Under the pieces are notes generated by a model. The model saw nothing but the letters and a program-made list of their open reading frames with translations. It did not search any database and had not been told where the DNA came from. From IMG/VR virus record IMGVR_UViG_2778261088_000003: 44,065 nt of DNA. One strand, 5' to 3'. Position numbers and translations under genes: made by a program. Positions 12,100 through 12,438 of this stretch are shown piece by piece (the first letter of the stretch is position 1; each line of letters opens with the position of its first letter). This DNA comes from a virus. Taxonomy: Duplodnaviria > Heunggongvirae > Uroviricota > Caudoviricetes.

Positions 12100-12159
12100 A
12101 AGAGCATTCCTGGTGGACCTGTAGATTGGGATATGAACCCGTTACAGGAGAATGCTCTT
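12100..12159. repeat. hairpin element A (10-bp stem around a conserved 25-nt core)
   Basis: Stem AAGAGCATTC / GAATGCTCTT; core GTAGATTGGGATATGAACCCGTTAC at 12121-12145. Confidence 0.5.
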
Positions 12160-12358
12160 ACCTGTTACGTGCTCCGTTTCGTGGAGCTAACGGCGGGTGA
12201 TCGGGCCGCACCAGACTGGACTTATTTCAGCGTTATGCTCATGCCAGAGAATCGAACTGTGATGGTCGGTGCTGAACTCCGACACAGGGTTGTAGCAAGC
12301 CCCGCAAAGCGCGCACTACTGTAGTTGCGGCACATCAGCCTGTGCATTCACCACAATG

Positions 12359-12438
12359 TTGAGAACACTGGTTGTCACGCTGCAACGCAACATTTATTCG
12401 TAGATTGGGATATGACCCCGTTACGCCAGTGTTCTCAA
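12359..12438. repeat. hairpin element A' (13-bp stem around the same core)
   Basis: Stem TTGAGAACACTGG / CCAGTGTTCTCAA; core GTAGATTGGGATATGACCCCGTTAC at 12400-12424 (24/25 identical to A). Confidence 0.5.

Follow-up and report, generated by a model that had tools for sequence, protein, structure and literature searches.

Imperfect stems of about 20 bp with conserved internal mismatches and bulges are known in phages as RNase III hairpins, for example the early R sites of T7 and the sib and N-leader hairpins of lambda. Such hairpins are placed between functional units of long phage transcripts, beside tRNAs or small RNAs (sRNAs) that are to be excised. Prophage positions described for the STnc100 (RF02076)/Pas sRNAs are the vicinity of TerB, the interval from Q to the lysis genes, and the early-left operon. 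In RNA mimics, such as the thrS operator with its likeness to the tRNAThr anticodon arm, phage pseudo-ToxI and the tRNA-like Y RNA YrlA, a small hairpin copies the element by which a tRNA or a nuclease substrate is recognized and competes for its partner. Phage pseudo-ToxI is a precedent for the RNA mimicry of a toxin's partner. To our knowledge, no phage leader has been described as containing a mimic of the initiator anticodon arm, and a literature search found none. Here, a DNA window of 44,065 nt (IMG/VR virus record IMGVR_UViG_2778261088_000003) was analyzed, which belongs to a P1-like phage. Its region 11900–13500 is 96.7–99.5% identical to P1 and is also close to P7, D6, SJ46, and RCS47. 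According to the P1 reference annotation, the region is the untranslated leader, about 1.5 kb in length, of the C1-repressed ban operon, with the minus strand as the sense strand. This leader contains four tandem paralogous hairpins, A–D, interleaved with two tRNAs. Very probably, these hairpins are members of a minus-strand RNA family, which is accompanied by a portable tip module with similarity to the anticodon arm of tRNAfMet.

The starting point was a repeated 25-nt core, GTAGATTGGGATATGA(A/C)CCCGTTAC, which the original prediction placed at positions 12121–12145 and 12400–12424, each copy enclosed by an inverted repeat. Both copies are present at these positions, with one mismatch between them. 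They are the sole two matches in the window at three or fewer mismatches, and 100 dinucleotide shuffles of the window gave none. Read on the minus strand, core copy A (12121–12145) has the sequence GUA-AC-GGG-UUCAUAU-CCC-AAUC-UAC and core copy B (12400–12424) the sequence GUA-AC-GGG-GUCAUAU-CCC-AAUC-UAC. The covariance model R1 of the module matches only these two copies in the window, with 45.7 bits (E 2.6e-11) for copy A and 42.5 bits (E 2.5e-10) for copy B. Both are indeed enclosed by inverted repeats, located at 12097–12109/12150–12162 for A and at 12349–12371/12426–12448 for B; the latter extends over 23 nt at 91% and thereby exceeds the claimed 13 bp. The related mini-hairpin reported at 12957–12971 is a real hairpin of 5 bp, which lacks CAU and AAUC and is not found by R1.

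The two stems had been regarded as unrelated in sequence, and this has to be corrected. Both belong to one family with the shared base CACAAC.../...GUUGUG-GUGAAUGC and covarying middle parts. The family consensus is CACAAC-A-GGUAAGAGCAUUG / CAGUGCUCUUUCC-GUUGUG. Hairpins A–D show the characteristic stem CACAAC(A)GGUAAGAGCAUUG / CAGUGCUCUUUCCGUUGUG at 3–8 mismatches with paired changes, followed by GUGAAUGC, and arms of the family occur in the window only at 12083–13113, on the minus strand. All four hairpins are read from this strand. Hairpin A (12091–12169) consists of a long family stem around the inner helix CCUGUA/UACAGG and the core module. The 23-bp family stem of hairpin B (12349–12448) closes a three-way junction formed by the core module and a second small hairpin, GUUGCGUUGCAGCGUGACAAC. 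Hairpin C (12585–12671) has a family stem, the repeats D2, D4, and I8, and a tip with the T-arm-like sequence AGGGUUCGAAUCCCU at 12607–12621. Hairpin D (13027–13113) has a family stem with an unrelated tip and the repeats I2 and D7. All four are flanked by the common motifs GCATTCACCRCAAYG and CTTACCTGTTGTGC, one on each side (repeat families D1, D2, and D7). On the minus strand each hairpin starts with GCAC(A/G)(A/U)AAC(A)GGUAAG... and ends with ...CUU(U/A)CC GUUG(U/C)GGUGAAUGC.

The minimum free energies of hairpins A, B, C, and D on the minus strand are −35.0, −49.2, −40.5, and −48.8 kcal/mol, compared with −28.9, −42.3, −34.3, and −33.6 kcal/mol on the plus strand, respectively. The minus-strand folds are 6–15 kcal/mol more stable than the plus-strand folds, and their z-scores against shuffles lie between −5.8 and −6.3 (−6.3 for both A and B). 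In total, 85 distinct hairpins and 75 distinct arm pairs were collected for the family, dozens of its units coming from an IMG/VR scan anchored on GTTGTGGTGAATGC. In 43 distinct stems, 88.5% of the cells pair, compared with 37–54% when the partner is slid by 1–3 columns, although the percentage paired is inflated, as the stems of alignment A2 and part of the A1 set were picked by complementarity. The compensatory counts relative to the slid controls are not inflated by this selection and were given more weight: both sides change at 14 of the 21 pairs, 107 cells are compensatory, and 0 of 500 shuffles reach the observed values. In the folding and covariation checks proposed with the original prediction, the four hairpins fold far better than shuffles and the stem pairs change in compensation. 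Its general reading of a structured RNA under selection on structure is retained; it did not identify the strand, and it overlooked that the stems are homologous and covarying.

The arms were found by a fuzzy match that allowed Watson–Crick pairs only and treated G·U and A·C alike. On the sense strand, G·U exceeds A·C by 68:29 in the long stem and by 17:9 in the core helix. In a core variant of CMS-2020a, likewise, a pair that is G·U on the minus strand becomes A·C when read from the plus strand. This asymmetric excess fits a minus-strand RNA and argues against a palindrome acting at the DNA level. Since the minus strand is the sense strand of the ban operon, gives the lower fold energies for all four hairpins and shows more G·U than A·C, it is the functional strand of the hairpins.

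Units composed of a family hairpin and a following domain are found in HK629 between pR'/an HNH gene and the holin gene, in mEp460 adjoining the repressor, in Yersinia phage PY54 between dam and the lysis genes, and in Klebsiella phage Kp4882-1 right after two tRNAs. They are common in the leaders of long operons of temperate enterobacterial phages, often directly after a terminator or a tRNA. Within the conserved stems the tips are hypervariable, with lengths of 14–119 nt and no detectable homology. No Rfam family matches the hairpins or the core in the window and related loci at permissive thresholds; the long-stem family with its exchangeable tips and the tip module are both absent from Rfam.

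The tip module is built from a helix, AC, GGG, a 7-nt loop (Y)UCAUA(W), CCC, AA(U/C)C, and the second strand of the helix. The same 19–20 nt occur on at least five scaffolds, namely P1 stem A, P1 stem B, a PY54/Yersinia type, a type upstream of yfdP, the "standard" stem of the loci L165, L222, and L240, and the locus L140. The yfdP-upstream type is a very common prophage type that follows a terminator and precedes yfdP-like or RdgC-like genes. The closing helix differs from scaffold to scaffold (GUA/UAC, GUG/CAC, GAAUA/UAUUC, CCGGGUG/CAUCCGG, GCGCAUG/CAUGCGU, GGCGGCA/UGCCGCC). All 8 of its pairs covary, with 68 compensatory cells in total, a result reached by 0 of 500 shuffles, and 86.9% of its cells pair compared with 29–48% in the slid controls. 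The GGG/CCC pairs are formed in 25, 25, and 23 of 25 distinct modules. R1 was also applied to 100 loci that had been retrieved independently of the core; it finds 41 copies in 11 variants, in which CUCAU is invariant. The AC/AAYC frame occurs only together with GGG/CCC and CAU, never with another stem or loop. Across scaffolds that share no stem sequence the core keeps 17–19 of its 19 positions, in Enterobacterales, in Saccharibacteria, and in a Bdellovibrio-like metagenome-assembled genome (MAG). The conservation of the core on scaffolds with fully diverged stems indicates selection on the core sequence as well as on pairing.

As a control independent of this selection of loci, one genome per species was scanned with a degenerate pattern. 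The scan is dominated by chance hits (about 85% without a flanking helix) and was used only as a bimodal control. It returned 113 distinct hits, of which 96 have 0–2 flanking pairs, as in a chance distribution, and 11 have 7–10 contiguous pairs, where about 0.1 would be expected. The 11 strongly flanked hits lie in Enterobacterales prophages, two Saccharibacteria, and three other MAGs. ARAGORN detected no tRNA at the pattern-scan hit in any of the 25 loci checked.

Of 5426 complete E. coli genomes, 2851 were matched by a 271-nt query that includes the yfdP-type hairpin; the matches lie in the early-left operon, next to a cI-like repressor. In the CPS-53 prophage of E. coli K-12 the module was not found upstream of yfdP. 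Many E. coli prophages (for example L372, about 2711–3181, from E. coli 13P477T, and L253) contain, in this order, a cI-like repressor gene (ymfK), an STnc100 unit, an intrinsic terminator, the module hairpin, and yfdP-yfdQ-yfdR. In two MAGs of Candidatus Saccharibacteria (L278, about 350–620, and L366), an aspS-like gene is preceded by an RNA gene of about 190 nt with the module at a hairpin tip. This gene has its own promoter-like and terminator-like signals, and compensatory changes are seen between L278 and L366. It has no Rfam, tRNA or tmRNA match.

The commonest variant of the module, ACGGGCUCAUAACCCAAUC, shares the 14-mer CGGGCUCAUAACCC with the anticodon stem-loop of E. coli tRNAfMet at 14 of 14 positions. 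By a rough estimate, the chance of a 14-mer identity to one of the cell's tRNAs is about 6e-5. Every one of the 5426 complete E. coli genomes has the tRNA-Met gene holding CGGGCUCAUAACCC at 100% identity, and the median copy number is 4. The query sequence was confirmed by this genome search, and the gene has the copy number and the sequence of the initiator tRNAfMet. Like the tRNAfMet anticodon arm, the module has three G-C pairs, a 7-nt loop, U33, CAU, and A37. CAU is invariant, also in the variants in which it was not forced, and the module has the features of a mimic of the arm rather than of a member of the tRNA family. The P1 copies, in which position 32 is U or G and position 38 is U, retain the three pairs, U33, CAU, and A37. 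Only in initiator tRNAs is the anticodon loop closed by three consecutive G-C pairs; this hallmark is required for selection by IF3 and the P site (PMC2528185). Enteric VapC toxins cut tRNAfMet in the anticodon stem-loop, and all tested VapC proteins cut structures resembling this stem-loop (PMC7180214).

To judge from its sequence, the module is not a decaying fragment of a tRNA gene, because the outer pairs of the anticodon stem are replaced by the invariant AC/AAUC and the module is conserved across scaffolds and phyla. No tRNA was detected at hairpins A–D, as ARAGORN and the Rfam model RF00005 call only three tRNAs in the window. With default settings, ARAGORN called none of the 85 family hairpins a tRNA, and the reading as a tRNA pseudogene was given up; at relaxed thresholds only two were called in sense orientation. 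The core was also considered as a T-arm (GGGUUCAUAUCCC). This was rejected, as position 58 is not A, variants of the CCCAUAA type break the T-loop consensus, and CAU and U33 are fixed. In hairpin C, a 20-bp stem has the T-arm-like AGGGUUCGAAUCCCU beside its 3′ strand, an arrangement like that of the acceptor/T minihelix of a tRNA. Hairpin C begins directly after the 3′ end of tRNA-Thr and is called a tRNA neither by ARAGORN nor by Rfam.

We propose that the leader is composed of RNA units in which a scaffold stem carries a tRNAfMet-arm-like tip, and we assign a probability of about 55% to this overall explanation. The long imperfect stem would be a scaffold for processing and stability that displays the tip module, because it has an RNase III-type duplex form and is placed between RNAs that need separation, namely tRNAs and STnc100-like domains. 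The dense structure may also protect the long untranslated transcript. As a candidate RNase III substrate, the stem fits in form only, being an imperfect duplex of about 20 bp; it resembles the known RNase III hairpins in its conserved mismatches and bulges and in its place within the transcript, but it shares no sequence similarity with them, and hypervariable structured tips and a tRNA-like module are alien to the classical sites. The tip may serve as a decoy or handle toward some factor reading the anticodon arm of tRNAfMet; we favor this as the most economical proposal. Three readers of this arm are known: MetRS, which recognizes the CAU, the 30S P site in conjunction with IF3, and the VapC PIN toxins of enteric bacteria. 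Candidate factors would be a tRNAfMet-specific PIN nuclease of the VapC type, against which the tip would act as an anti-toxin or anti-defense decoy, or the 30S P site with IF3. That the resemblance to tRNAfMet reflects functional mimicry is a tentative proposal, with the odds leaning slightly against it, and VapC-type nucleases are a doubtful choice of partner. A decoy released from an early, repressor-controlled transcript would suit the countering of an abortive response based on a toxin–antitoxin system. In its most far-reaching form, the proposal would be that a portable mimic of the initiator arm is displayed on hairpin tips in the early or leader transcripts of temperate phages, P1 among them, and in a few unrelated bacteria, where it is a decoy for tRNAfMet-cleaving VapC-type toxins or hijacks initiator recognition by the 30S P site and IF3. 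This is conceivable, and we consider it unlikely.

Several observations weigh against the proposed explanation, in addition to the inflated pairing percentage given above. The module keeps only 3 of the 5 pairs of the anticodon stem, and the P1 loops UUCAUAU and GUCAUAU differ from CUCAUAA of tRNAfMet at positions 32 and 38. The invariant unpaired AC/AAUC flanks, which replace the outer two stem pairs, have no counterpart in the tRNA; the module is therefore no plain copy, and what it binds may have no connection with tRNA biology. RNAfold favors a different fold of the tip for L165, and the module has no constant gene neighbor. The structure can also be lost. A core without flanking inverted repeats, which had been named as a finding that would contradict selection on structure, is present in SJ46-type genomes. 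What remains there after a 279-bp deletion, precisely as recombination between the cores would produce it, is a single core between the 5′ arm of B and the 3′ arm of A. The SJ46 hybrid hairpin is located at 822–912 of the locus L006; it folds at −18.1 kcal/mol with a z-score of +1.0, and the A/B structure is lost. In Ro157c2YLVW (L003), the 13-nt GGG...CCC hairpin has been cleanly deleted from hairpin A. These losses show that the module is dispensable for SJ46-type phages and Ro157c2YLVW. The SJ46-type case demonstrates that the hairpins are dispensable there, not that the structure is meaningless. P7 and D6 contain, of A and B, only hairpin B, along with other hairpins of the family. Taken with the losses in SJ46 and Ro157c2YLVW, this identifies the hairpin array as an accessory, fast-shuffling part of the genome.

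The main rival of the proposed explanation is that the hairpins serve processing only, with RNase III/RNase E stems releasing the tRNAs and STnc100-like RNAs, while the tips are neutral cargo and the core is the debris of a captured tRNAfMet fragment spread by recombination. The hypervariability of the tips on conserved stems, the occurrence of T-arm-like pieces in 9 of the 85 tips, the presence of real tRNA genes in the same loci, and the loss of the tip or of the whole structure would all be accommodated. Neutral debris would decay, however, and the core is kept on unrelated scaffolds whose closing helices differ and compensate, with invariant flanks AC/AAUC that do not come from a tRNA. We therefore consider this explanation rather unlikely, though it deserves to be taken seriously. 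It is also conceivable that the tip is a kissing loop of the antisense type, in which a 7-nt U-turn loop (CUCA/UUCA) pairs with a complementary loop or with an AUG start (UUAUGAG/AUAUGAA). The loop sequence fits the YUNR rule, which is reportedly due to Franch et al. in 1999, and the neighboring STnc100/PasD are Hfq-associated base-pairing sRNAs (bioRxiv 10.64898/2026.05.13.724894). Such pairing leaves the invariance of GGG/CCC and AC/AAUC unexplained, and no conserved complementary partner was found; upstream of yfdP, inspection by eye gave only 5 nt of complementarity in the Shine–Dalgarno region. A kissing loop is accordingly improbable.

The remaining explanations have much lower probabilities. 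Recombination sites, protein-binding sites, or cruciforms acting on double-stranded DNA would lead exactly to the SJ46-type deletion, but 25 bp of identity suffice for an occasional homologous deletion without any dedicated function. A duplex site does not produce the observed strand asymmetry, which is seen in the G·U counts and in the consistently more stable minus-strand folds, and stems that covary while conserving their mismatches and bulges are characteristic of RNA; a DNA-level element is thus very improbable. A target of the IS200/IS605 type at TTAC and an integron attC site were considered on the sequence alone and dropped, the divergence beside the core being the covarying closing helix. 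Even less probable is Nus-factor antitermination of the boxA type, by which the 3′ arm would keep RNA polymerase resistant to Rho on the untranslated leader. Here the context of a long untranslated operon leader is suitable, and the 3′ arm (minus strand; for example at 12097–12109 and, in B, at 12349–12371), UGCUCUUU(CC) followed by GUUGUGG, or UGUUCUCAACAUUGUGG in B, resembles rrn boxA/boxC when compared with the generally known boxA consensus. The element is not a conserved single-stranded GCUCUU(U)A; it is fully base-paired, its summed column entropy of 18.1 compared with 17.3 for its 5′ partner shows that it is no better conserved, and GCUCUU is replaced in many members by GUUCUC, ACCCUU, GUCGUU, or GAUAUU with compensation in the 5′ arm. 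A reading similar to the put sites of HK022 was also rejected, as no family arm, 3′ domain, or core motif is found in HK022 at 20000–32000. Little more than a nominal chance is left for protein coding by upl (12133–12324, plus strand) and plp (12325–12702, plus strand), for which the repeats would be incidental. These are the only features annotated in the reference for the approximately 730 nt between tRNA-Thr and tciA, and NC_005856 lists both with predicted promoters. The original prediction saw no credible open reading frame in this stretch, and our results agree: there is no Pfam match, the variable sites are flat over the codon positions (31/32/33 and 24/27/32) with no excess at the third, and relatives have many indels whose length is not a multiple of 3 (5, 7, 8, 13, 17, 28, 86, 161, and 385 nt). 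Furthermore, plp overlaps tRNA-Thr on the opposite strand, several P1-like records have no annotation of upl and plp, and what is annotated as the ATG start of upl is complementary to the loop CAU of core copy A (12133–12135). The same ATG complement is present at the CAU of core copy B (12412–12414).

Each of the four hairpins is followed by an STnc100/PasD-like domain, which consists of a closing stem UUGUGGUG/CACCACAA, a first hairpin (GCAGGCUGAUGCGC or GGCUAAGCGCACGCGG), a variable middle part, and a hairpin of the CCGGAGAUCAGCACCGG type. The 3′ domain of unit A (11979–12094, minus strand), which lies directly upstream of tciA, has the closing stem UUGCGGUG/CACCGCAA, followed by the GGCUAAGCGCACGCGG and CACCGGGAGGCACUCGG hairpins. 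It shows the STnc100 architecture with 43 bits (E 3.5e-7), which is below the gathering score of 47 and covers only the model positions 31–147. The match ends at 12094, 3′ of hairpin A on the RNA, so that the hairpins and the core lie outside the model. In the full-length match found in L276, positions 1–30 are unlike the family stem. The 3′ domain of unit B (12257–12348, minus strand) contains GUGAAUGC, the ACAGGCUGAUGUGC hairpin, a variable part, CGGAGUUCAGCACCG, and CAUCACA, which is able to close with UGUGGUG. Its architecture is also found in HK629, mEp460, and Kp4882-1. No STnc100 match was obtained at E ≤ 10 for the domains after hairpins B, C, and D, or at E ≤ 1 for the related units in HK629, mEp460, PY54, and Kp4882-1. 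The units of the family occur at the prophage positions described for STnc100/Pas sRNAs; the P1 units differ in having no intrinsic terminator. Sequence similar to the STnc100-like domain of unit A occurs in the early-left regions of Rac-like and Stx phages. A further module is located 5′ of hairpin A at 12172–12250 (minus strand); it has the form CAUGAGCAUAACGCUGAAAUAAGUCC...GCUCCACGAAACGGAGCAC, ends in a small hairpin with a GAAAC loop, and is common to Klebsiella phage Kp4882-1 and several IMG/VR contigs. The only match to YrlA (RF02553) in the region has 25.6 bits against a gathering score of 69 and spans the two tRNA genes, not the hairpins. The P1vir/hfq RNA-seq preprint contains no data on the leader hairpins.

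The reference annotation of P1 assigns transcription of the whole leader on the minus strand to P1ban with its bivalent C1 operator. These elements sit within the end of dmt and were placed at 13480–13507 (minus strand) by transfer from Obanab/P1ban of NC_005856 (locus 2912–2941; window coordinate = locus coordinate + 10566). The order on the minus strand is P1ban, a dicF-like region, unit D, tRNA-Asn, tRNA-Thr, units C, B, and A, tciABC, trnI, which encodes a tRNA with a CAU anticodon, and ban. P1ban/Op72, the tRNAs, and tciA are all encoded on the minus strand. tRNA-Thr (12673–12748) and tRNA-Asn (12751–12826), both called by ARAGORN and Rfam, are embedded in the hairpin array. The dicF-like region at 13282–13383 (minus strand) is marked at the start of the ban leader by the P1 annotation; the Rfam model of DicF gave no match in the window at E ≤ 10. 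Just upstream of tciA, the minus-strand sequence AATCTAATAAATATGTCAC at 11955–11980 resembles the C1 operator at P1ban, with 74% identity to 13478–13500 (repeat D5), and may be a second C1-operator-like site in this P1 variant. A 168-bp stretch at the STnc100-like domain of unit A (11900–12067) is missing in the reference P1 record and present in OP279344, P7, and D6.

Although P1 is a workhorse phage, two doubtful open reading frames are all that is annotated in about 1.5 kb of its ban leader. The results presented here recast this stretch as an array of structured RNA units common to many temperate enterobacterial phages. The module on the tips copies the one feature that separates initiator from elongator tRNAs. 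Provided that the mimicry is functional, phages would have in it a cheap RNA tool against toxins that target tRNAfMet, or a means to influence initiation, and the modularity of STnc100/Pas-type loci would be explained. If true, this would be an RNA-based counter-defense or translation-control device that has not been described so far.

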